DNA of 64,000 nt from Kiritimatiellia bacterium (lineage in GTDB: Bacteria; Verrucomicrobiota; Kiritimatiellia; RFP12; UBA1067): the NCBI GenBank assembly GCA_045536845.1, contig JAZSOG010000027.1:30721-94720 (forward strand), read 5' to 3'. Below the pieces are notes generated by a model, which saw only the letters and a list, made by a program, of their open reading frames with translations, searched no databases and was not told the origin of the DNA. Position 1 is the first letter of the stretch; each line of letters begins with the position of its first letter. Shown here in pieces: positions 5,988 through 51,397 of the stretch. A program made the translations under genes and the position numbers.

Positions 5988-6646
5988 ATGAAAATGCCTT
6001 TCTCCATTGCCTTTGCTGCCATCGTGGCTTTCTTCGCCTCATCCGCGCCTGCCGCGACAGACGTCACCTGGACTGGCACGCCGCTTACCGCGAGCAGCAC
6101 GTCGATCCGCACCGACGGCACGCTCAAGTACGCCTACGCGCGTGGAGATTATACAGCCAACGGCGTTGCGTTTGTCGGCGTAGGAAACAAAATAATCAAT
6201 AATGCGGACTGCATCGCATGGGAAGCATCTTCTGGTGCAAGAGAAGGCCAGTCAAATCCGCCGGAAGACACTGAAGATGGCGGCTATAAGAATTTGCTAT
6301 TGTATGGCTGGTGGGCTAACACGAACCCGAACCCCAAGCCACGGAAGATTCAGCTGAACAATCTTGAGGATGGAAAGAGATATCTTGTCCAGATAATCCC
6401 TACCGCAATATAACGGAAACATTAAGCGCAGCTGTAACCGCACCGGACGGCGGAACAACTGTAAAATTTGTAGGCGATGGCTGGACGTATGGCAGTTCCT
6501 TGTCCGCCGAGTTCACGGCTGAGACTGCAACTGAGGAGTTCACACTTTCATATAGCAACCACTGTGCCATCAACGCCATCCAGGTGCGGGAGCTGCCGGC
6601 GGATGGGCCAGTGTCTTCGCGTGGGTTCTATTTTATCTGCAAGTAA
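5988..6646 (+). pseudogene. Single-module lectin-like secreted protein, interrupted by a frameshift near 6396-6400
   Basis: ORF 5988..6413 (signal peptide, IRTDGTLKYAYA, YLVQII) ends at a TAA. The rest of the same module (GDGWTYGSSLSAEF...INAIQVRELP...GFYFICK*) continues in the -1 frame to 6646. The join lies in the run atccc. Confidence 0.6.
6069..6595 (+). repeat. Lectin-like module copy P (in the frameshifted gene)
   Basis: W..SIRTDGTLKYAYA..NGVAF..RYLVQII / frameshift / GDGWTYGSS..INAIQVREL. Confidence 0.7.
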
Positions 6647-12718: not shown

Positions 12719-14752
12719 ATGGCTACAGGATGCAATGGACGGATTGTAGGGCTGGCGTCGCTTGGCGTGGCGGTCATGGTGGGTGTGTCGTTTCAGGCAC
12801 TCGCCGGTAGTGCTGGTGCGGAGGGCTCTGACTATGTCGTATCGGCCGATGCAAATGAAGAATACATGGTCAATGCGGCAATTGACGGCTACGCGCGGCT
12901 CGTGAAGCGCGGCGCCGGCAACGTGGTGCTGAGGACAACAACGACTGAGTTTGCGGGCAACGTTGTTGTCGAAGAAGGCGCTCTCTATATCGAAACCGCC
13001 GGTTCGGCCGTGTTGCATCTCAATGGGTCTTTGGTCGGAGGTTCGGCGGGGACGTCTGATATCTTGTTCCGCAAAAGGGGAACGGGCTTGCTTTGCCTGA
13101 ACGGCGATGTTGACCTCGCACGCAACGTGCAGGTCGACCAAGGACTCATGCAAATGACCAGTGCGGCTTCGCGCGTGTACAGTCAAGTGTTCATCTTGAA
13201 AGGCGCAGGCCGGTCGTTGTTGGGTGACGGACATGCGTTTATGAACTGGATTCGCGTTGGCCTCGATAGCTATGGCGTTTTCCATCAGACAGGCGGCATC
13301 CTCGACGTGAACAATGATACCGAAATCGGCACGAGCGCTTCGAGCGTCGGTCACTGGGCCATGTCGGGTGGCGAAGCGTACATGAGCAATTCGGTCTATG
13401 TCGCAAAGTCTGCTGGCAGCTTCGGCAGTTTCATTCAGTCTGGTGGTTTGTTCAAACTTGAGGGCGGGAGCCTGAGTGCTGGTCGCGCCGGTTCGGCTCT
13501 GTTCCATGTGAGCGGGGGAACGAACGATACGCGGGTTACGCAGGGAGGGCAGACCCAGCGCTTTTTTGTCAGTGACTGGGGCGGATGCTCCGATGTGACG
13601 GTGTCGGGCGAAGGGACGTTGCTCGCGACCGAGACGCTGCGCTTCGGAGGTGGCGGCGGAACCGTTTCCACGAATATTTTCAACGTGAAGGATGGCGCAA
13701 TGGTAAAGGCGGCACGCTTCTTCAAGCACAGATCCGCCGGCGCCGCCGCCCTGATCACCGTCAACGCCGACGGAGGAACGCTGATGCCGACGATGGGCTA
13801 CGACTGGACCAACGGTTCGCAGAACGATGCGAACTACTACACGGCTAATCCCAGTCATTTCGTGATCTGGAAGAAGGGCCTTGTCATTGACACGTCGGAA
13901 TCCACCGGAACCAAACCTGCGAGCCACATGCCGTTCTCGTTCGCGGCACCGACCGGAAAGGGCGTGGAGTCCGTCACGCTGCCGACCGAGGGAGACTACA
14001 CGACGGCCAACTACATCGGCCCCGCGCGCATCGTGTTCGAGGACGAGACCGGCTGGGGCGCGAGCGCGTACGCCGAATACGACTTCGAGACGAAGAGGCA
14101 CACGCGCGTCGTCCTCACTTCGCGCGGCTGCGACTACAGCGACAACGCGAAGGCGTACGTGGAGAGCCCCGACCGCACCACGCGCTGGGAATGCGCGCTT
14201 ACGCTCTCGGACAACGCTAGTCTTGGCGGCGAAGTCGTGAAACGCGGCGAGCACGATCTCCACCTCTATGCCACCAACTCGTTTTACGGCATAGCGGTCG
14301 AGTCGGGAACGCTATATGCCGAGACTGACGGCGTCGTGCCGAGCAACACGTCCGTCCGCGTCGAGCATGGCGCGACGTTGCGGTTCGCGAAGCCCGCGCC
14401 GCTCTTCCTCTCCTCCTTCGGTGGCGCCGGCAGCGTGCCGGGGTGCGACATCACGGTGACGAACTCGCTTCGCGCCTCGTGCGCAGACTTGTTCGCGGGC
14501 AAGCACGCGGATATTGACGGCGACCTCACGTTCGCGCCTGGCGCGACGTTCACGATCACTGACCCAGAGAACTTGGCGGCGTACAAGCGCTGCAAGGCGG
14601 CCGTGGCGTTTTCGGCCCTTCATGTGAACGGCGAACCCACGCTTGCTTTTGAGGGGAAGCCGACGGGTTCGGCAAGATGGACGCTGTCCAGGTTGGACGA
14701 TTCCTCGTTCAAGTTTGGCCCGAACATCGCAACGGTGATTGTACTGAGATAG
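12719..14752 (+). CDS. Secreted autotransporter-associated beta-strand-repeat (PATR-like) protein
   Basis: SD AAAGGTG 8 nt upstream. Signal peptide. Repeats of the type LVKRGAGNVVL..TTEFAGNVVVEEGALYI and VVKRGEHDLHLYATNSFYGIAVESGTLYA. Confidence 0.7.
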   Translation: MATGCNGRIVGLASLGVAVMVGVSFQALAGSAGAEGSDYVVSADANEEYMVNAAIDGYARLVKRGAGNVVLRTTTTEFAGNVVVEEGALYIETAGSAVLHLNGSLVGGSAGTSDILFRKRGTGLLCLNGDVDLARNVQVDQGLMQMTSAASRVYSQVFILKGAGRSLLGDGHAFMNWIRVGLDSYGVFHQTGGILDVNNDTEIGTSASSVGHWAMSGGEAYMSNSVYVAKSAGSFGSFIQSGGLFKLEGGSLSAGRAGSALFHVSGGTNDTRVTQGGQTQRFFVSDWGGCSDVTVSGEGTLLATETLRFGGGGGTVSTNIFNVKDGAMVKAARFFKHRSAGAAALITVNADGGTLMPTMGYDWTNGSQNDANYYTANPSHFVIWKKGLVIDTSESTGTKPASHMPFSFAAPTGKGVESVTLPTEGDYTTANYIGPARIVFEDETGWGASAYAEYDFETKRHTRVVLTSRGCDYSDNAKAYVESPDRTTRWECALTLSDNASLGGEVVKRGEHDLHLYATNSFYGIAVESGTLYAETDGVVPSNTSVRVEHGATLRFAKPAPLFLSSFGGAGSVPGCDITVTNSLRASCADLFAGKHADIDGDLTFAPGATFTITDPENLAAYKRCKAAVAFSALHVNGEPTLAFEGKPTGSARWTLSRLDDSSFKFGPNIATVIVLR

Positions 14753-42343: not shown

Positions 42344-43402
42344 ATGAACGAAAATCAAGCCGCCAACAACCCCATTAGCATCTACGGACAGGAAGGTCTT
42401 GACGACTTCCCAGTCCTGAAGGCTTTTCAGCAGTATATTGACGCCGAGCAGAGCAAATCGCGCAAGCGCATGGTTATGCTTTGCGTGTTTTTCGGCTTTC
42501 TAATGACGATCATGATCGTCGTATTCTTGTTCATGCTGCGTGACGCCACCGCTAGGAACCAGGCGCTCAACGACAAGTTCGTCAATTTGCTTATGGAGAG
42601 AGATCGTCAGCCGGTTGTCGTGCAACCGCCCGCGCCGATACAGAATGCCGCCAACGACGCCGCCATCAAAGCGATGACGGATACCATGGCAGCACTTCAG
42701 AAGCAGATTGCCGACCAGCAGGCAAAGATGATCGAGCAGCAGGCAAAACTCGAAGAGAATCGAGCAAAGATGGCCGAAGAGCAGCTCAAGGCAGTCACTG
42801 CGGCGGCTGCAAAGGCCCAGGAGGCCGCCGCGGCGCAGAAGGCCACTGGCCCCTCAAAGGAACAGCTCGCGCTCCAGAAGCAGATTGACGAGGATACTGC
42901 AAAGCTTGTAAAGGCCAGAGCCCTTCTCAAGGCCGAAAAGGAGAAAATTGCCGCCGAGAAAGAGCGGCTTCGCCGCGAGGAAGTCGAGCGCCAGCGTCGC
43001 CGTCTGTATCCCGAATATTACGAGAAGAAAGACGCCGAGGAAAAGGCTGCAGCAGAAAAGAAGCAACAGGCTCCGGCAGCGGAAATGGACGGGCCTGTAA
43101 GCTACTTTGACGCCTATGAGGACGATGTCGACCTTGACGACGATGGCCTTTCCGCCGACGAGCTCGATGATCTTGTCCCTTCCGCCAAGCCGAAGCCCAA
43201 GGCCAAGCCGGCAGCAGCTCCGGCAAAGCGGCCGGCCGCAAGCCCAGCGAAGAAACCTGTGACCCCTTCTACGGCGGCTGCGAAGACCAAGCCGGTGCAG
43301 AAGACGGCTCCCGCCAAGGCGAAGGCGGCGACAAGCGACCGTTACGTTGTTCCAGTCGAGATCAACGGAGCTGATTCCGACTGGCTTATTCCAACGACGT
43401 GA
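42344..43402 (+). CDS. Single-pass membrane protein with long coiled coil and A/K/P-rich low-complexity tail
   Basis: TM segment MVMLCVFFGFLMTIMIVVFLFML, then a heptad-like Q/A/K/E region and a PKPKAKPAAAPAKRPAASPAKKP tail. TGGTATAAT lies 6 nt upstream of the ATG. Confidence 0.6.
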   Translation: MNENQAANNPISIYGQEGLDDFPVLKAFQQYIDAEQSKSRKRMVMLCVFFGFLMTIMIVVFLFMLRDATARNQALNDKFVNLLMERDRQPVVVQPPAPIQNAANDAAIKAMTDTMAALQKQIADQQAKMIEQQAKLEENRAKMAEEQLKAVTAAAAKAQEAAAAQKATGPSKEQLALQKQIDEDTAKLVKARALLKAEKEKIAAEKERLRREEVERQRRRLYPEYYEKKDAEEKAAAEKKQQAPAAEMDGPVSYFDAYEDDVDLDDDGLSADELDDLVPSAKPKPKAKPAAAPAKRPAASPAKKPVTPSTAAAKTKPVQKTAPAKAKAATSDRYVVPVEINGADSDWLIPTT

Positions 43403-43570
43403 CCGCCGCTTAGCGGTTCGTTGCAATTCGCCACGGAAGCCATCATTCTGACGAGCTTGCGATTCATGGAATAGGTCCGGCCCCTATCATCTCAACATAG
43501 TTTGTGTACGCCATTCCAGACAGCTAGTAATCCCATCCTGCCGAATCGCCATCCGCTATTTTAAGTTTGT

Positions 43571-43744
43571 TCAGCAAGTAGATGTCTGGTCATTTAGCTT
43601 CGCTCGTACAGTTGAGAACATTACATTCGTCTCAACCTCGGCACTCGTCCGCACCGTCTCTGGCAACGACGGCACAACATCCCTCGCCCCTGCGAGAGCG
43701 GAGAAGGAGAAAAATGCAAAGAGAACTACCGCCGCAAACCTCAT
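43571..43744 (-). CDS. 57-aa signal-peptide ORF (below the ORF-track cutoff), last gene of the minus-strand operon
   Basis: Hand translation gives MRFAAVVLFAFFSFSALAGARDVVPSLPETVRTSAEVETNVMFSTVRAKLNDQTSTC*. Clear h-region and ALA-GA cleavage-type site. The ATG is 27 nt after the DUF262-HNH stop. No obvious SD. Confidence 0.35.
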   Translation of the reverse strand: MRFAAVVLFAFFSFSALAGARDVVPSLPETVRTSAEVETNVMFSTVRAKLNDQTSTC

Positions 43745-43771
43745 GCGGGTATTTCACCATAATTCAGCGAG

Positions 43772-44860
43772 CTACTTGCCACCCTTCTTGAGGTTGCATG
43801 TGCGGCAGAGCATCTGGAGGTTCTCGATCTTTGTGCGCCCGCCCTTCCACCAGGGCATGACATGGTCGCCATCCATGTCCTCGTAGGCAAACTCCTCTCC
43901 ACAGATCGCGCACCTATGGTTCTGGCGTTCGTAGACAGTCCGCTTGTCCGCATCGTCGAACTTGCGAAGGTTCAGTAGACTGAAGTCGCGCTCGCCGCCA
44001 AGGACGAATTCGTACACACCGCTCTTCCGTCCGACCTCCGCGTCCGCCATCAGCGCCTTGATCCGCTCTTCCATCGCCGACGGGTCGTAGCGCTTCCCTC
44101 CGTATCTGGAGAAGAGAGGGCCCCACTCCAGCCCCTTCATCTCCTTTCTGTACTTCGGGAACAGCGTCTCGATCCAGTCGACGATGCCCTTGAAGTACAG
44201 CCACTCCTCCATTGAAGACGCCTCGTGCTGTCGAACGGCCATGTAGTCCTTCACGGCCCCTTCGCTTTTCCACTTCAACACAGTCGCGAGATAGTCCTGT
44301 CGGATTGGCTCGCCGCGAAGGTAGCGGCTGCCAAGCCCGTAGGCGGGCCCGGACGGCCTCGAGAAGTAGCGCTTCAAGTCCGCTGTCCACGGCCCCGCGT
44401 AGACGGCGTTCAGAAGCTCCTGGTCCGTCAGCTCCTCGCCGGCGATGTTGATTGTCTTGAACCACTCCAGCTTCTCCGCGTCCGTCCCCTCGCAGAAGTA
44501 GACCATCAGCGGATAGTCGAGGATGGCGTCCTGCTCCCCTTTCGTGAGGTTGCCGAAATATCGGAAGTTGTAGGCGAACTTTCCAGCGACGTACTCGCAC
44601 ACTGACAGCGTCCGCTGCTGGCCGTCGATGACCTCGTAAGTCCCGTCGCCGCGCACGGCCCAGTACATGACGTTCAGCGGATATCCCTTCGTCACGGTGT
44701 CGATGACAACGACCTGCTGCTCCGGCTTGTAGATGAACTCGCGCTGGTACTTTGGCCGGACGTCGAGCTTGCCGCCGTATGCGACAACGCCCTCGTCCTC
44801 GCTGTTGACGTATCCTGCGACAAGCTCGCGGACAGCTATCTTGTGAAGCTCAATATTCAC
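43772..44860 (-). CDS. DUF262 (ParB/Srx-like NTPase) - HNH nuclease, GmrSD/BrxU-like type IV restriction candidate
   Basis: N-terminal DUF262 with EVIDGQQRTLS. C-terminal HNH/zinc ribbon HRCAICGEEF...DGDHVMPWWKGGRTKIENLQMLCRTCNLKK. GTG start with GGAGGA SD 8 nt upstream. Confidence 0.85.
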   Translation of the reverse strand: MNIELHKIAVRELVAGYVNSEDEGVVAYGGKLDVRPKYQREFIYKPEQQVVVIDTVTKGYPLNVMYWAVRGDGTYEVIDGQQRTLSVCEYVAGKFAYNFRYFGNLTKGEQDAILDYPLMVYFCEGTDAEKLEWFKTINIAGEELTDQELLNAVYAGPWTADLKRYFSRPSGPAYGLGSRYLRGEPIRQDYLATVLKWKSEGAVKDYMAVRQHEASSMEEWLYFKGIVDWIETLFPKYRKEMKGLEWGPLFSRYGGKRYDPSAMEERIKALMADAEVGRKSGVYEFVLGGERDFSLLNLRKFDDADKRTVYERQNHRCAICGEEFAYEDMDGDHVMPWWKGGRTKIENLQMLCRTCNLKKGGK

Positions 44861-44873
44861 AGTGCCATTCCTC

Positions 44874-45416
44874 CTATCGTATGCGTATCGTCATTGGCAT
44901 GTTCTGGACGGAACACTCTATCTGAGGACTTGGAGCGTCAAGCCCACGGCAGACAATCTTGACCGTGTTCCATCCGGCATCGAAGAGGAAGCGCGGCTGA
45001 TTTGCCGCGAGCGCGACAAACGCCGGTGCGCCGCCGACGGACACCGCGAGCGAGCGGGGCGCGGCACTAGGAACGGCAACAAGCCGCCATTCCATCACGG
45101 TCGAGCCAGACGCACGTTGCTCTACAGTCTCTTCTCCTGTGGCGCAGTCCACCACCTTCCACACGCCGCAGTCCCAGCCAATCATCAGCGACTCTTCCGC
45201 CCGCGAGAGAACGCCGTCCATGTCCGCGTCTCGTCCGAACACAAGCGAGACGTTGTTAGATGGCGTAGCAGCCAGTTCCAGACTAAACGAGAACACCCGC
45301 GAGTCGGCGCGAACCGCAGGGAGAGCGACGTTTGTCACAACCTCCGTATCGTCGTGCTCCGCTGGTGGAAGCGCGGGGAGCGCAAGCGTAGCGGCAAGCA
45401 GAGACAAAGCAATCAT
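44874..45416 (-). CDS. Small secreted hypothetical protein
   Basis: Signal peptide MIALSLLAATLALPALPPA. 4-nt overlap (ATGA) with the upstream gene. Its stop overlaps the SD of the nuclease gene. Confidence 0.55.
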   Translation of the reverse strand: MIALSLLAATLALPALPPAEHDDTEVVTNVALPAVRADSRVFSFSLELAATPSNNVSLVFGRDADMDGVLSRAEESLMIGWDCGVWKVVDCATGEETVEQRASGSTVMEWRLVAVPSAAPRSLAVSVGGAPAFVALAANQPRFLFDAGWNTVKIVCRGLDAPSPQIECSVQNMPMTIRIR

Positions 45417-46141
45417 CTGCCCTCCTTCGCGGCTTCTGCCGTCACCTTGGCGTCGATTCGCTTCAGCGCATTTGTCGCATAGTCAACCTGATAGTCGTTG
45501 ACGCGCCGCTCGGCAACCTCTCGCAGCAACGCCTTTCTGTCCTCGCTCGTCTCGTAGTCGGGATCAAGCGAAAGCAGGAACTTGTCAGCCCAAAGCGCCG
45601 TCGCGGGAATTGTCCTTGAATATCGCTTGAGCGATGAAATCGACAGTTGCTTGTCGGCAACAGAAACTTCATCCCGCTTCGCGGCATAAGCAAGCGCAGA
45701 ACAAATATCATATCTGTCATGTTGCTGCTTAAGATTCCTATACATGATATCATTCGCAAGTTCAACAGCATTACTCGTTATGCCGTCTATAAGGATAACA
45801 GCAGATACTGCCTGCGCTGCGATGTTTAAATCATTAGTGTAGCCAAGAAGGAATGGCACGTCTTCACTTGTCCCATGGTTTATCAACGCGGAAATGGCCC
45901 ACGGAACACGGTTGGTGTGTTCAACTGCAATTTCTTTTGCGATGCGCGCTATCCGCCGATCATCTCCTTTGCATAATTCTATCGCATGTTTATAAGCTCC
46001 AATCGCTCTATTGCCGCAAAACGCTGGTGCAGTTGCCGAAAGAAAGGCCGCCTTGATCTCTTTGTCAGTCATCGGTTGCTGCTCAGCGAATGAACTTGCG
46101 CAAGCCGACACAAACACCGCCGTTATCGCTATTCCCCTCAT
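45413..46141 (-). CDS. Putative lipoprotein, alpha-helical (HEAT/ARM-like) repeat protein
   Basis: Signal peptide with a lipobox-like FVSAC. Helical-repeat composition. The gene lies in the lowest-GC stretch of the window. Confidence 0.55.
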   Translation of the reverse strand: MRGIAITAVFVSACASSFAEQQPMTDKEIKAAFLSATAPAFCGNRAIGAYKHAIELCKGDDRRIARIAKEIAVEHTNRVPWAISALINHGTSEDVPFLLGYTNDLNIAAQAVSAVILIDGITSNAVELANDIMYRNLKQQHDRYDICSALAYAAKRDEVSVADKQLSISSLKRYSRTIPATALWADKFLLSLDPDYETSEDRKALLREVAERRVNDYQVDYATNALKRIDAKVTAEAAKEGR

Positions 46142-46150
46142 AATATCCTC

Positions 46151-49105
46151 CTATTGGTGAACAGGACTTGTGCCCCTGTCCACATTGGTGAAAAACCCGA
46201 CTGGAGCAAGACCGATTTTCCAGTCGCTGTCAAAAACGCCATCTCCCGTGTAACTAACCCCATGTATATCCCCCATGGTGATGTCGCGTCCGCCAGAGGA
46301 AGTATGCCGCTCTCCATTCATCAACATCCTGTCAAAAATGTCGTGAAGGAAGACATGCTTACCATAGAATCGACAACCACCATCGCCATGTCCATCACAG
46401 CCAAGATTCCAGTCTGACTCCATAAATACATACTTCGGACGTTCTGCCGCTGGAATTGACTTCAATGACACCGTCTCATTTGTCGCGCCGGCATTTGACG
46501 CATAAATGTCTTCCATTCCAAGTGCGTGTCCAATCTCATGCGCCAAGGTTCTGCCATCCGCTCCAGCGGTCATTACCATTCCTGAAGCGCAGTTCATGCC
46601 CAGTATCTGAGGGGCATCAACAAAACCATTAACGAAATAGCACTCCAACGCACCAGTGTCAACATTCAAACCCACAAGATGCTCTTTTGTCAGCTTTCCA
46701 GGTCTGGACTCGTTGTATGTAACGTTATACGCAGCCCCAATATTGGTAAACACAATTGGCTCTATCAATTCCACGTTGACACCTGTTTGCTCATAAATGT
46801 CATCAGCTTCAGCAACCAAGTCTCGAACTTCACTTTGCGTTCGTGCCCAGGCCATTTCATCGCCGACAACCCACGCACGAAGTCTGACTGTCATTGGCTG
46901 GACAACCTTGGCGAAAAACGCCGGGCGGGGCGACTCTGCGTCGCCAAACTGCACCATGAGGAACACATCCCCTGCCGAAACGCCCTCGACCGTCACGACT
47001 CTGCCGGTGTTGACATTCGAGCCGACAAATCTGACTGCCCCTTCGCACATGTTGGTCGTCCAGACGATCTTGCTGTCGGGATAGTCCTCGGGCAGAACAT
47101 CTACTTTGAACGTCGCCGTCTTCCCCACTACGACGGCACAGGGGTTATAGAGGTAGGAATGCAGCCGTCCGTCGCCCGCAAAGTCGGCGAGCGACCACGA
47201 CTCGTCAGTGATCGGCTCTGCTGTCGGCTCGACGATTGTAAAGCGCTTGCTTACGGCGGAGCGCCCCCCGGAGTTCGGCTTCCAGAGGACGCGGACGCGT
47301 CCGTCTTGGTAATGCGAACTTGCCACGGCGGGGTTGACGAAGAAATCCCGATACAGCGAAGACGAACCCGATACGGCGTACTCGTGCCCTTCGCTAATTG
47401 GCGAGAGGCCGGATCTGTCGGCATAAACACGACGCGTTCCGTTCGTGTCCTGTTCAAGCCCGGTCAATCTCTGGAGCTTGACGGCTCCGCTGGTCGGCAA
47501 GATCGAAGAGAACGACACGTGCCCCTCCGCGATTTCGTCGTCCTTGTCCGCGAACGGCGGCTCGGCATCTACCGAACCATTGTCGTCGTCGTCGTTCGCA
47601 ATGAACGTGGACGGCATTTCTATCGACAAGCTGATCCCATCACCAGTGAAAGTGCTCGGCTCAGGCTCGTACATTGTGCAACTGCAGGGGCCATACCAAC
47701 TGAATGCGCGGTAATAGCCTTCCCACGATGCCACGGCAGACAGACAATGCTCACCGTTGCACAGGCAATTCTCGGAGCAGAGCCACGCGAAGCCGAATGC
47801 GTTTGTCTCACACGAGCAGCACCCGCCGGAGAGCGACGCAAGCGACGCGCCAACGTCTATCGGCGAGGAATGAAGCCCATAGTTAGCCGTGAGTGCATCG
47901 CCACCGCCCGACCTCATGAGAATCTGCTCAAACGAAAACTCCAGCGGCAAGGAAACTGTCAGGTTGTTGTCGGCGTTCGTGGCGATCTCTGCATATTCAC
48001 TCGACACGGCGGAATAGTCAATCGGCAAGTCGCTTTCGACGACATAGGTCGCGCCAGCGAGAAGCGGAATGTGGCAGACCTGGTTCGTGCGGGCAATCAC
48101 AAGATGGTCGCCAAGGTCGCTCGCGCCGTCGCACGTGACGCGGATCGTAGCGACGCCGAGAAGCCCAGTGACCGAAAGATCAAGCCAGTAGTAGGCATCG
48201 GGATTCGCGTTTGCGGGCAATGCGTTCCCAACGCCAAAGAAATCGCCGTCGCAGCTTGTCGGGTTCAAGTCTCGCTCGTTGTGGATTCCGTCGTCATCCC
48301 AATCGTCGGGGTTGATTCGTCTGTAGACGGTCTCGACATCGTTGCTTCTCGTCGTGAAGTCGCCGTCGGCAGAAAGGCGGATATCCGCGTCGTACCCTTC
48401 TGTGCAGTCACGCTCCGCGAAGACGCTCGTCCACCGCAAAACCTTCGCGCCGTCCTCCGCGTCCGCGCTCCAGAAGCCGCTTACTCCAGGCACGAGCGAC
48501 GCATGCTCACGCGCCGCGCAGATGAAGCCGGGGCCGTTCAGCGCAGGGAACGTCTCGACCATTCCGCCGGAAAGGACGCGAAGCCGGTTGATGCGGTTGG
48601 TGCCGAGCGGGAAGACGAAATCGCCAAGGTCAAGCGGAAACCACGTCTCGCGTCCGCCACGCTGCGACCACCGCGCATACTCCACGGCGTTGGACGGCAG
48701 GGGGGCAAACGGCGCGGCGTTCGTAGCCACGCTTTCTGCGCGGTAGCCGCGCATGATGTCCTCTGGCGTAACTGCGGCAGTTCCGCAGCGAAGACCGCCG
48801 TCGTCACGACGGCCGACCTGTTGCCCATAGCCCAAACCGAGTTCTCTTTCCTCAATCGGCGCACCCGCCGAACGCGGCGGATCGTTCGTCTTGCTGCCGC
48901 CGTAGATCACGCCTATCAGAAGCATCGCGCAGACGACAGCCCTTCCGACAGCCGTCAGCTTCCGCCAAAACTTGGAAATCGGCGCACTGGCAACCTTACC
49001 TGTCCACCACAGGACAAGCGCGGCAAAACATGCAATGGCCCCGCGCAGACATATCCACGCAAGTGCATTCCGAAACGCCTCTCCCGCTGCAATCAGGACA
49101 CTCAT
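46151..49105 (-). CDS. Membrane-anchored large extracytoplasmic protein with Cys-rich segment and C-terminal metzincin-like Zn-protease motif
   Basis: Two N-terminal hydrophobic helices. Cys cluster GGCCSCETNAFGFAWLCSENCLCNGEHCL (~47650-47850). TLAHEIGHALGMED fits HExxHxxGxxD, with HEIGH encoded at 46526-46540. Confidence 0.75.
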   Translation of the reverse strand: MSVLIAAGEAFRNALAWICLRGAIACFAALVLWWTGKVASAPISKFWRKLTAVGRAVVCAMLLIGVIYGGSKTNDPPRSAGAPIEERELGLGYGQQVGRRDDGGLRCGTAAVTPEDIMRGYRAESVATNAAPFAPLPSNAVEYARWSQRGGRETWFPLDLGDFVFPLGTNRINRLRVLSGGMVETFPALNGPGFICAAREHASLVPGVSGFWSADAEDGAKVLRWTSVFAERDCTEGYDADIRLSADGDFTTRSNDVETVYRRINPDDWDDDGIHNERDLNPTSCDGDFFGVGNALPANANPDAYYWLDLSVTGLLGVATIRVTCDGASDLGDHLVIARTNQVCHIPLLAGATYVVESDLPIDYSAVSSEYAEIATNADNNLTVSLPLEFSFEQILMRSGGGDALTANYGLHSSPIDVGASLASLSGGCCSCETNAFGFAWLCSENCLCNGEHCLSAVASWEGYYRAFSWYGPCSCTMYEPEPSTFTGDGISLSIEMPSTFIANDDDDNGSVDAEPPFADKDDEIAEGHVSFSSILPTSGAVKLQRLTGLEQDTNGTRRVYADRSGLSPISEGHEYAVSGSSSLYRDFFVNPAVASSHYQDGRVRVLWKPNSGGRSAVSKRFTIVEPTAEPITDESWSLADFAGDGRLHSYLYNPCAVVVGKTATFKVDVLPEDYPDSKIVWTTNMCEGAVRFVGSNVNTGRVVTVEGVSAGDVFLMVQFGDAESPRPAFFAKVVQPMTVRLRAWVVGDEMAWARTQSEVRDLVAEADDIYEQTGVNVELIEPIVFTNIGAAYNVTYNESRPGKLTKEHLVGLNVDTGALECYFVNGFVDAPQILGMNCASGMVMTAGADGRTLAHEIGHALGMEDIYASNAGATNETVSLKSIPAAERPKYVFMESDWNLGCDGHGDGGCRFYGKHVFLHDIFDRMLMNGERHTSSGGRDITMGDIHGVSYTGDGVFDSDWKIGLAPVGFFTNVDRGTSPVHQ

Positions 49106-49119
49106 TGTCTTCTCCGCAT

Positions 49120-49128
49120 ATTATACCA
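49120..49128 (-). promoter_or_regulatory. Extended -10 TGGTATAAT for the five-gene minus-strand operon
   Basis: Minus strand reads TTTGGTATAATatgcGGAGAAGacaATG. The -10 is 14 nt from the ATG at 49105. Confidence 0.5.
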
Positions 49129-49355
49129 AACTCAGCCAAGTGCTGCTCGTCTCCATGCGCGATTCAGAGTGGCGGCGAAGTGAGCAAAGATGAATTAGCG
49201 ACAGTTAGAGACGATTAGGGTCGGATAGCGTTATGGCGCGGACGCGGTGGGGGTGTTTCGGCGGCATGCGTCATTAGCCGCAAGTTATCACCAATCCGAG
49301 CCGATGATTTAGGCGAAGCGCAGAGGCCGGAGAGCCGACTGGCGCACGAGAGCAA

Positions 49356-49493
49356 GTTTGCGGGCCCGGCGTGATTTTGACCGCCAGCGCAAAGAGCGCG
49401 CGTGAAATATCCGCCGGGCGAAGCCCGCTTGCGAAGCAAGTCGCTAGAGCGGTGCGCGCGCGTCAAAATCATGCCGGTGGGGTGCCCGCAAAC
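49356..49493. repeat. ~138-nt imperfect inverted-repeat element (MITE-like or structured RNA)
   Basis: Left arm GTTTGCGGGCCCGGCGTGATTTTGAC (49356-49381). Reverse complement of the right arm (49462-49493) is GTTTGCGGGCaccccaCCGGCaTGATTTTGAC. That gives 25 matches, 1 mismatch and one 6-nt bulge. The interior holds two GCGAAGC mini-hairpins. Confidence 0.6.
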
Positions 49494-49537
49494 TGCGGGT
49501 CGGGCGAGCAGGTCGGGCGCAGGCCTCACCATCGGGC

Positions 49538-49570
49538 GGCGCGGCGTTTAAACATCGCCAAACGCCGCCC
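49538..49570 (-). terminator. GC-rich hairpin 25 nt downstream of the fucI stop (possible terminator or 3'-end stabiliser)
   Basis: GCGGCGTTT (49541-49549) pairs with AAACGCCGC (49560-49568). 10-nt loop. No U-tract on the minus strand. Confidence 0.35.
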
Positions 49571-49594
49571 TTGTGTGACACAACTAAGGATACC

Positions 49595-51397
49595 TTAGCG
49601 GTTCGTGGCGTAGAGCGGGCCGAAGTTCGCGCAAGCGCGGTAGTCCGCGCCGGTCGGGTCGTCCGATGCGCCGAAGAGTCCCCAGCAATGCGGCTGGAAC
49701 ACCTTCTCCTCCGGCACGTTGTGCATGGCGACCGGAATGCGGAGCATCGAGGCGAGCGTGATGAGATCGGCACCGATGTGACCGTACGCAATTGCGCCAT
49801 GGTTTGCGGCCCAGGCGTTCATCACCGAGTAGACGTCCTTGAAGAAGCCCTTCCCCGTGAGACGAGGCGTGAACCAGGTGCAAGGCCATTCGGGGTTCGT
49901 GCGCTCCATAAGCGTCTTCTGCTGCTTCGCATCGAGAGTGACGGAATAGCCCTCAGCAATCTGGAGAACAGGTCCCTGGCCCTTCACGATCGAAATACGG
50001 ATCATCGTGAGAGGCATCCCCTTGGGCGTCAGGAACGACGATGAGAAGCCGCCGCCGCGGAAGTATTCAACGCCCGCGGGAACCCATTTCGTCGCCTTCA
50101 AGGTGGCGTCGATGTCCTTCTGGGTGACTTCCCACCAGTTCTTGAAGACCGACTTCCCCTTATCCTTCATCTCGCCAGCCGCGTCAAGGCAGCAGGAGCC
50201 GGAATTGAGAAGATGGATGATGCCCGCCTTCGCGTCCTTAGGAAGCCCCTTCCCTGTCGCGCGCTTGACCGCCGCGTCGCTCCAGTAGGTGCGAACGTCG
50301 GCGAACATCGACGCCTTGTTGGTGAGGAGCCACATGAGGAGCATGCAGATGCCGTTGAGAGAGTCGTTCTCCGTCGCGAGGATCTGCGGCATCTTCTTGC
50401 CGTTCCAGTCGAACGAGGTATTGCACATGACCTCGGCGACGTCGCCGTTCGGCCAGTGGTCGGTCCACTGGCGTTGGCCCTGGAAGCCACCGGCAATCGC
50501 GTTGCGCCCGACGGCCTCTTCGCCAAAGCCCATCTCCTTGAGTTTGGGATTGCCGGCCATCATGTCGCGAACGATGATCGCCATCTTCGCGATGAACTCC
50601 CAGTCCTTGTCCTTCTCGGCGCGAGACTTCTGGATCTTTGCGGGATTGTAGTCCTTCCCTTCCTTGAGGTTCTTCTTCATCCACGCAAGGGCCTTCTTGT
50701 ACTCGTCCTTGTCGTAGATGCCTTCCTCGATGCGACGGAGAATCTCGCACTCGTCCATGTTCTCCGGCGCAAGGCCGAGATAGTCCTGCATGAAGTTGAC
50801 GTCGACGAAGGAGCCTGCGATGCCCATCGCGGAAGTTCCGATCGAGAGATAGCTCTTGCCCTTCATCATTGCGACGGCGAGACCCGCCTTTGCGAAGCGG
50901 AGGATCTTCTCTGCGACGTCTGCTGGAATCTTCGTCGTCTCGTCGCGGTTCTGCACCTCGTGGCCGTAGATGCCATAGGCTGGCATGCCGCGCTGCGCGT
51001 AGCCAGCGAGCATGCACGCGAGATAGACGGCGCCGGGACGCTCAGTCCCATTGAAGCCCCAGACTGCCTTCGGAATTGTCGGATCGATGTCCATAGTCTC
51101 GGTGCCGTAGCACCAGCAAGGCGTAACGGAAAGCGAGACGCCGACGTTGTTCGCGGCAAACTTGTTCGCGCACTGCGCGGCCTCGAATCTGCCGCCGATC
51201 GTCGTGTCTGCGATGACACATTCGACAGGCGTGCCGTCGGGATACTTGAGGTTATCGGAAATCAGCTTCGCGGCGGCTTTCGCCATCGCCATCGTCTGGT
51301 CTTCGAGCGACTCCCTGACGCCGCGTCTGCGGCCGTCGATGATTGGGCGGATGCCCACCTTGGGGAACGGATTGTTTGTGAATACTGTCTGTTTCAT
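49595..51397 (-). CDS. fucI: L-fucose isomerase
   Basis: 600 aa. The N-terminus [25 protein letters not shown], and collinearity along the full length, match FucI as I recall it. Confidence 0.93.

Follow-up and report, generated by a model that had tools for sequence, protein, structure and literature searches.

A candidate mobile restriction-modification cassette with a nested envelope-protein module in a Kiritimatiellia bacterium

Genes can reside inside restriction-modification (RM) operons, as exemplified by PrrC, which is nested within the EcoprrI RM operon. RM genes can also be accompanied by others when they move: the PluTI unit contains an RM system together with extra genes inside a repeat-bounded unit (PMC2875022), and RM insertion with long target duplication has been described (Furuta, Abe and Kobayashi 2010, PMC2853133). 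A further group of nucleases, the Type IV DUF262 enzymes GmrSD, BrxU and SspE, joins a ParB/Srx-like DGQQR N-terminus to a C-terminal His-Me finger nuclease (PMC4619093, PMC12707154). Here we analyze a locus that shares features with each of these systems. It lies within 64,000 nt of DNA from a Kiritimatiellia bacterium (GCA_045536845.1, JAZSOG010000027.1 positions 30,721-94,720), hereafter referred to as the window, whose positions serve as coordinates throughout. On the minus strand, the gene for a 362-aa DUF262 plus HNH restriction endonuclease (R; 43772-44860) follows three others: big (46151-49105), encoding a 984-aa membrane-anchored envelope protein with a C-terminal metzincin domain, g2 (45413-46141), encoding a 242-aa predicted lipoprotein, and g3 (44874-45416), encoding a 180-aa predicted secreted beta-sandwich protein.

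We lean, without strong conviction, towards reading this locus as a composite mobile RM cassette, in which the envelope module is nested as cargo and the nuclease is an ordinary restriction enzyme. The cassette would then be a mobile RM unit with nested genes, which is a known kind of element; it is unusual in that the nested genes are uncharacterized and their products are predicted to be extracytoplasmic. Like PrrC and the Fic, Bro-N and ORF6N genes discussed below, the envelope genes are found inside an RM operon, but the nested genes known so far encode cytoplasmic toxins or regulators able to contact the RM proteins, whereas the nested products of the cassette are predicted to reside outside the cytoplasm. 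As in PluTI and mobile RM units (PMC2853133), RM genes and extra genes are found between direct repeats (~135 bp in the related locus L007, 13 bp in the window; L numbers designate loci of relatives), and presence or absence is allelic at one chromosomal site. However, the extra genes of PluTI are cytoplasmic NTPase/nuclease-like and lie beside the pair, while those of the cassette are of the exported type and lie between R and the methylase gene (M).

The nuclease and its restriction-modification family

R matched both GmrSD_N/DUF262 (PF03235, E=6e-19) and, at its C-terminus, HNH (PF01844/PF14279) in Pfam, in agreement with the domain composition originally proposed for this 362-aa protein. 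Against PADLOC it matched the REase_II model PDLC03418 along essentially its entire length (E=3e-125; residues 1-361 on positions 1-371 of the 372-position model). The alignment shows no variation at D79-R83 (DGQQR), C317, C320, D332, H333, N347, C352 or N356, and the motifs of both domains are kept, namely DGQQR in the ParB/Srx-like domain and D-H...N...N with two CxxC pairs in the HNH domain. The R gene is undisrupted, and purifying selection acts strongly on it (dN/dS 0.03-0.05; 29 synonymous versus 3 non-synonymous differences).

The R family is large, with more than 8000 word-sharing matches and at least 324 loci in species-representative genomes of bacteria, the candidate phyla radiation (CPR) and archaea; its M-R pair is present on plasmids also. 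We fetched 80 genome loci for R-family context, whose homologues are 51-60% identical to R. An EcoRI-family methylase gene (PF13651) was located directly upstream in 77 of the 80, in all phyla and with a median gap of 4 nt, and in the other 3 a contig end cuts the locus. Because of this pairing and the full-length match to PDLC03418, we regard R as the restriction gene of a classical mobile M-R pair and, judged by its family, as the endonuclease of an EcoRI-family-methylase Type II RM pair. The original prediction had instead viewed R as a GmrSD-like nuclease effector, a view that did not survive this comparison. Although R shares the DUF262 DGQQR layout and a His-Me finger with GmrSD, BrxU and SspE, its C-terminus is a zinc-finger HNH (PF01844) rather than DUF1524, for which Pfam gave no match in this part of the protein. 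A stand-alone GmrSD-type nuclease was ruled out on the basis of this HNH domain and the methylase adjoining R homologues. Moreover, the almost invariable pairing of the R family with a methylase argues for cleavage that is blocked by modification rather than dependent on it.

Exact-sequence look-ups of the window R and of P0063 returned no record, and a literature search found no description of a pair of EcoRI-family M and DUF262-HNH nuclease, or of RM in Kiritimatiellae. Independent uptake of the cassette nucleases from other phyla was considered and rejected, as a neighbor-joining tree displayed basal long branches with none nested in other phyla.

Canonical M and R genes of this family abut, but the junction between them can be occupied. 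Nine of the 77 canonical M-R pairs carry a gene nested between M and R (L012, L016, L059, L026, L033, L056, L063, L043 and L061), encoding Fic/DOC (3, with a helix-turn-helix), Bro-N (2) or, in the rest, ORF6N/Rha, DUF6261 and unknowns, indicating that the M|R junction is a recurrent landing pad. In the clade that includes the window cassette, the envelope genes separate M from R by 4.7 kb.

The window itself lacks M. Neither tblastn nor hidden Markov model (HMM) searches detected a PF13651-like methylase anywhere in the 64 kb, and no remnant was found upstream of big. M is present in relatives L001-L008, L089 and L181; homology of the window to L001 begins 18 nt past the L001 methylase stop and ends at the R stop. 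As far as sequence comparison can tell, the window cassette is a methylase-less derivative, M being situated at the cassette's other end in relatives. L091 represents a second methylase-less cassette, while in two independent assemblies (L178:1561-2765 and L179:191-1395) M is split by a frameshift and the downstream nuclease is intact.

Linkage, autonomy and mobility of the cassette

The original prediction asked whether the nuclease and the envelope genes ever occur together elsewhere. They do: the nuclease and the three envelope genes share the same order in at least 10 distinct cassettes. The order M-big-g2-g3-R was observed in L001-L004, L005/L006, L007, L089, L178/L179 and L181, while L008 carries M-R-big-g2 followed by a g3 stub, and L177 carries big-g2 followed by a remnant in which g3 is fused to the nuclease. 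These cassettes occupy at least 7 different flanking contexts, each arrangement residing in its own chromosomal neighborhood, and their presence in many unrelated contexts indicates that they move as a unit.

The association is confined to part of the envelope family. An unbiased metagenome scan with the big-protein alignment identified 80 loci, only 4 of which contained M or R, and 10 loci flanked by sufficient sequence on both sides contained no RM gene. When a tree was built from the N-terminal halves of big, a single clade took in every RM-linked locus except L096; in this clade 11/11 loci carry RM genes or their remnants and the g3 gene always directly precedes R. Gene order followed the same division, since RM linkage was found for 10 of the 13 loci with the order big...g3 and for 1 of the 21 with the order g3->big. 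L096 (1-9454) reads M-R-g3-big-g2-big-g2-g3 plus a nuclease fragment, and tandem envelope arrays with partial copies (big-g2-big-g2-g3) were also seen in L120-L122 and L125.

M and R vary in concert and fall into three types, namely A (the window, L001 and L169), B (L005, L007, L089, L178 and L181) and C (L008). The three types are mutually no more than 56% identical, compared to 59-78% for the N-terminal halves of big in their modules. For types A and B the respective identities are 56% (M), 54% (R) and 78% (big N-terminal half). Since the A and B RM genes are far less alike than the accompanying N-terminal halves, the RM bracket appears to have been exchanged around a similar envelope module. 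What remains at the 3' end of L008 is a g3 stub of 60 aa together with a fragment of the nuclease; its type-C pair is new and lies upstream. In relatives the type-A nuclease gene is always followed by a 111-aa gene (L001:14920-15255, L169:3035-3370), which matches the uncharacterized family phrog_625 and is absent from the window.

Several comparisons indicate, at the level of sequence, that the RM pair and the envelope module are autonomous. The M-R pair lacks envelope genes in 80/80 sampled genome loci outside the cassette clade. P0121, a nuclease 99% identical to the window R, sits in a plain M-R-111aa locus at the RNase III-DXS-MurJ site, and at that same site L001 has M-big-g2-g3-R-111aa. 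A near-identical R in a plain M-R locus implies that the nuclease has undergone no adaptation to the envelope proteins, and argues against coupling at the protein level. Likewise, L173 (g3-R...) and L169/L170 (M-R...) are 99.8-99.9% identical over 3069 nt starting from R codon 1 and unrelated upstream. The position of this breakpoint suggests that R is a recombination unit, serving with or without envelope genes. Between L169 and L001, the housekeeping flank is 90% identical and the methylases are 78% identical.

The window copy is itself a mosaic. It is 97.9% identical to L001 over 49158-46927 and 95.2% identical over 45995-43773, while the intervening tract (45996-46926, minus strand) displays no nt similarity to L001. 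This tract, with a GC content of 0.49-0.50, forms the core of the low-GC patch described below and is continuous with cassettes of the L181/L182 type, which bear the zinc-site variant HEIGHALGMED and a 240-aa g2.

The original prediction had included horizontal acquisition among its options, and the unit does look inserted. In the window, a 13-bp direct repeat, CTTAGCGGTTCGT, is found at both putative borders: the right copy (49594-49606) covers the last codons and the stop of fucI, and the left copy (43409-43421) lies 7 nt from the stop of a convergent gene for a 352-aa protein. Repeats of this length arose in 42 of 20000 shuffles (0.2%) and in 54 of 1514 overlapping real segment pairs (3.6%). 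In L007, direct repeats of ~135 bp with ~90% identity (6274-6412 and 13277-13408) flank M-big-g2-g3-R exactly, and match the RM insertion with long target duplication mentioned above. The left copy in L007 contains an AT-rich 16-nt tandem motif.

The envelope proteins and the surroundings of the cassette

The structure model of big (predicted local distance difference test, pLDDT, 77) starts with an anchoring helical hairpin at the N-terminus and continues through a disordered linker and a string of beta-sandwiches to an alpha/beta C-terminal domain. Family alignments revealed Asp-rich, calcium-binding-like repeats (NPDDWDDDG) and many invariant cysteines, features that fit the predicted extracytoplasmic location of the protein. 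Whole-chain Foldseek searches with the model against PDB and viral structures returned generic multi-Ig or Ig-array matches only (template modeling, TM, score ~0.1).

Motif and profile matches identify the last 258 residues of big (aa 727-984; 46151-46926, minus strand) as a putative adamalysin/reprolysin-like zinc protease domain. Its HEIGHALGMED motif is located at 46508-46540 (aa 856-866), and the pattern HExxHxxGxxD is present in the window protein and in 45 of the 52 relatives aligned through the domain, the other 7 keeping HExGH. Against PDB, the domain profile matched the snake-venom metalloproteinase BmooMPalpha-I best (E=2.6e-4), followed by BaP1, atragin, ADAM8, serralysins and fragilysin. 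Pfam Reprolysin_3/5 was matched by 9 of 26 members of the big family, the window protein falling below the Pfam thresholds. FMES, which aligns weakly (E=0.06) with SLMSY of serralysin, is a candidate Met-turn; an invariant M203 is found further downstream. The zinc motif and the profile matches support the assignment of the C-terminal domain as an adamalysin/reprolysin-like metzincin with a predicted protease activity, much as had been proposed originally. Compared to the M12B adamalysins/reprolysins, serralysins and fragilysin, big shares the HExxHxxGxxD zinc site and the profile match to the catalytic domain, but the position of its third zinc ligand is Asp rather than His, and its domain terminates a membrane-anchored multi-Ig stalk.

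The big family comprises 1113 clusters at 50% identity (E<=1e-10), and source-named homologues all come from Kiritimatiellae metagenome-assembled genomes. The family is modular, in that the N-terminal half (~aa 112-495) is also joined to unrelated C-terminal halves without HExxH. The N-terminal half had no Pfam match, and the alternative C-terminal halves, g2 and its variants, g3 and the 111-aa gene yielded nothing usable in Pfam, NCBIfam, PADLOC, PHROGs or PDB-sequence searches. For the first 726 codons of big, dN/dS was 0.18. Carriage by phages was examined and rejected: among 2.9 million viral contigs there was one doubtful match for big and none for g3. The 834-aa open reading frame (ORF) that runs antisense to big (46679-49183, plus strand) is a shadow ORF of a GC-rich gene and no real gene.

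The g2 protein bears the lipobox VSAC. It had no match in Pfam, PHROGs, PADLOC or PDB, and no relatives were detected beyond this system. Its length tracks the C-terminal allele of big, being 240-242 aa with HEIGHALGMED and 424-429 aa, owing to a duplicated domain, with HEIGHAFGLRD. Replacement of g2 by an unrelated gene in L001 was considered and ruled out, as the 424-aa g2 of L001 is a duplicated version of the same domain. In the g3 protein, DDTEVVTN is a conserved motif and two cysteines are invariant; the model (pLDDT 79) is a beta-sandwich with weak ConA/LamG/SPRY (jelly-roll) resemblance in Foldseek (TM score ~0.4), and dN/dS for g3 was 0.39. None of the envelope proteins matched PHROGs. 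The PADLOC search suggested in the original prediction was thus informative for R but not for the envelope proteins: big and g2 had no match, and that of g3 to SspC (E=0.005) was spurious. Based on signal, lipobox and anchor sequences and on the invariant cysteines, big is probably anchored in the inner membrane, with g2 a lipoprotein and g3 secreted. An E-x-V-x-T-N motif recurs after N-terminal hydrophobic segments in g3 (aa 22-29), in the 57-aa ORF described next and in big (aa 72-74 and 122-129), with the variants DDTEVVTN, SAEVETN and RAESVATN plus an invariant KTN; it may represent a sorting, processing or strand-pairing signal.

The original prediction described five minus-strand ORFs in a low-GC operon with one promoter, long non-coding flanks and ordinary catabolic neighbors. 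The ORFs were found as described, with a 9-nt gap between big and g2, a 4-nt overlap between g2 and g3, 13 nt between g3 and R, 27 nt between R and the fifth ORF, and a GGAGGA upstream of R that overlaps the g3 stop. The tight spacing makes a single transcript of the five-ORF unit plausible. However, the fifth, 57-aa ORF (43571-43744, minus strand) could not be retained as a gene in its own right. It is 74-84% identical in nt sequence to the g3 gene starts of L105, L114, L112, L103 and L131, and its counterpart in L005 matches the N-terminus of the g3 HMM; on this comparison it is what survives of the 5' end of a truncated g3-like gene that belonged to a neighboring envelope module. The proposed promoter, the extended -10-like motif TGGTATAAT, was present at 49120-49128 (minus strand), 14 nt before the big ATG, and has the same letters in L003, but lacks a -35 element and was therefore missed by a sigma-70 promoter scan. 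A consensus scan of the region returned terminator-like matches at no more than the chance level.

The GC dip is real, reaching 0.46-0.50 and thereby the minimum of the 64 kb (mean 0.598, sd 0.030, in 900-nt segments), but is confined to ~45500-46900 (~1.4 kb), and the operon overall is not low in GC. Codons 1-726 of big, the g3 gene and the R gene have a host-like GC content of 0.60-0.61. The low-GC stretch spans the protease domain of big and g2; the corresponding segments of relatives are low in GC too, as are their methylase genes.

Non-coding stretches are present on both flanks of the cassette. The non-coding leader occupies 49129-49593 (minus strand), and in relatives the methylase gene lies between such sequence and big. 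Positions 49192-49503 are 81% identical in nt sequence to the region upstream of the L091 cassette. The structured inverted repeat noted originally on this side was recovered as a long imperfect hairpin at 49355-49494 (arms 49355-49381 and 49462-49494; fold of -93.8 kcal/mol over 191 nt, z=-4.25), and an Rfam search of the region returned no match. At 49235-49262 a conserved core, GCCGAAACACCCCCACCGCGTCCGCGCC, is followed by CTAA-rich repeats, and is found upstream of M, or of big where M is absent (L169:123-140, L181:8213-8230, L182:847-864 and L091:260-277). The leader shares a 45-nt core with the regions upstream of M in L169, L181 and L182. The GCCGAAACACCCCCACCGCGTCCGCGCC core may be a promoter or regulatory element, or an element of the cassette end.

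As originally noted, the neighbors are ordinary catabolic genes. They function in glycan catabolism (fucI, fucosidases and alpha-galactosidase) and are accompanied by genes for a Ser/Thr kinase, a signal peptidase and IMPDH; since they are catabolic or housekeeping genes, the region is no defense island. The 352-aa protein encoded convergently with the cassette (42344-43402, plus strand) has one transmembrane segment, a long Ala/Lys/Glu/Gln-rich coiled-coil and a Pro/Ala/Lys tail, and is without family assignment.

Explanations for the linkage and their significance

According to the reading that we prefer, a ~6.2-kb composite cassette would have inserted at the 3' end of fucI. R would cut DNA lacking its partner's methylation, with the DGQQR domain binding NTP or DNA and the zinc-finger HNH performing the cleavage, as its family suggests. 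The envelope half would form an anchored stalk of Ig-like, calcium-binding and disulfide-rich domains bearing an adamalysin-like protease, together with a lipoprotein and a secreted beta-sandwich protein. One clade of cassettes from rumen-type Kiritimatiellae has this module nested between M, which encodes an N6-adenine methylase, and R, and would travel as one unit bounded by target duplications. The RM pair would serve as vehicle, addiction module and DNA-level defense, with the envelope genes as cargo under diversifying pressure. The window R would be covered by a methylase located elsewhere in the genome, or would be silent. The link between the two halves would be genetic rather than biochemical, and the reason for the linkage is one that we infer. 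Nothing in these data shows a functional interaction of the envelope and RM halves. The option of a fortuitous fusion of two modules, raised in the original prediction, comes closest to this reading insofar as modules have been fused, but an association that is stable across the clade (11/11) is not fortuitous.

Four points weigh against a purely genetic cassette with an ordinary restriction enzyme. The association outlives the swap of RM type and, in L008, decay and re-acquisition, which looks like selection for RM beside the module. The lack of M in the 64 kb, the methylase-less L091 and the frameshifted M of L178/L179 are awkward for a lethal Type II nuclease. Sequence-specific restriction by R would follow from its family, and the characterized prototype behind the PADLOC model was not identified in REBASE. 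Finally, the 13-bp repeat is only suggestive as a cassette border, because 3.6% of overlapping real segment pairs contain one. The same persistence of the association across the clade (11/11), through RM type swaps and re-acquisition, would be expected of a two-layer defense operon, in which the envelope module blocks phage at the surface or in the periplasm (e.g. by proteolytically cleaving or masking receptors or the injection machinery, in the manner of superinfection exclusion), RM destroys the DNA that enters, and the two are kept together for better protection. Fast diversification of the envelope genes (swapped C-terminal halves, the mosaic tract, a g3 dN/dS of 0.39 versus 0.03 for R), the conflict-type nature of other genes nested in R's RM family (Fic, Bro-N) and a spacing tight enough for co-transcription are all compatible with such an operon. 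However, no envelope protein matches a PADLOC or PHROGs family, most of the envelope family is RM-free, the neighbors in the window are catabolic, and nothing links the protease to phage; we consider this explanation doubtful. We would likewise advance only tentatively the broader idea that, in this Kiritimatiellae lineage, RM and a periplasmic or surface protease module constitute a single selectable two-compartment cassette for defense or conflict, in which the envelope proteins would attack an invader before it reaches the cytoplasm and the nuclease would attack its DNA within, with the nuclease kept after loss of the methylase and the M|R junction acting as a general docking site for second-line functions.

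It is also possible that the adjacency was not selected at all, and that a single insertion of a highly abundant mobile RM pair into a hyper-variable surface-gene array has since been inherited and reshuffled by recombination. Tandem envelope arrays with stubs (L096, L120-L122, the 57-aa stub), recombination breakpoints exactly at the ends of the R gene, and decayed copies such as the g3::nuc fusion of L177 and the nuc fragment of L008 all conform to this scenario. We nevertheless judge it rather unlikely, as it does not readily account for three RM types (<=56% identical) in equivalent positions around big N-terminal halves that are 59-78% identical, for the entire M...R unit with its own direct repeats in L007, or for cassettes in many unrelated contexts and hence for movement as a unit. 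The envelope module taken alone, with RM as a mere neighbor, resembles polymorphic toxins (CDI, Rhs) in having a constant N-terminus, swappable and mutually unrelated C-terminal halves, a small downstream gene (g2) whose type co-varies with the big C-terminal allele, and big-g2-big-g2 arrays with partial copies; the C-terminal end of big and g2 together also form the low-GC mosaic. Its constant part could thus deliver a variable effector, here the zinc protease, against which g2 would act as a periplasmic lipoprotein immunity protein or inhibitor. This explanation appears improbable, since no T5, T6 or T7 secretion genes were seen beside any locus in Pfam-annotated contexts, the big N-terminus is a membrane anchor and contains no known trafficking domain, and the variable part is very large (~490 aa of Ig-like domains plus enzyme), with no known toxin domain and no short toxin tip; the window and L001 versions of g2 differ by the duplication of a domain and are not unrelated proteins. 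Least probable is the original suggestion of an envelope-sensing module that switches on the cytoplasmic nuclease after attack, for which only gene adjacency and the conserved g3-R junction speak. R has the same length and domains, and no additional one, as in plain pairs, and a near-identical R is found in an M-R locus free of envelope genes. Of big, no more than a few dozen residues near the anchor would lie in the cytoplasm, g2 and g3 are predicted to be exported, and no signaling domain was found in any of the proteins.

The preferred reading, that of a mobile RM cassette with nested envelope cargo, bears on how RM systems are viewed. RM is usually seen as a compact two-gene unit, whereas here the M|R junction of a very common RM family has repeatedly taken up other genes, and in one bacterial class the pair brackets a whole module of exported proteins that moves along with it. 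The window additionally presents an apparently healthy restriction gene without its methylase. The big family emerges as a large, fast-evolving and uncharacterized group whose members, membrane-anchored proteins with multiple Ig-like domains, occur in Kiritimatiellae of the gut and rumen and form over 1000 clusters at 50% identity. Should the linkage be purely genetic, these cassettes would provide a clean natural case of RM acting as vehicle and addiction device for unrelated cargo; should it be functional, they would be the first RM operons to incorporate a function at the envelope level.

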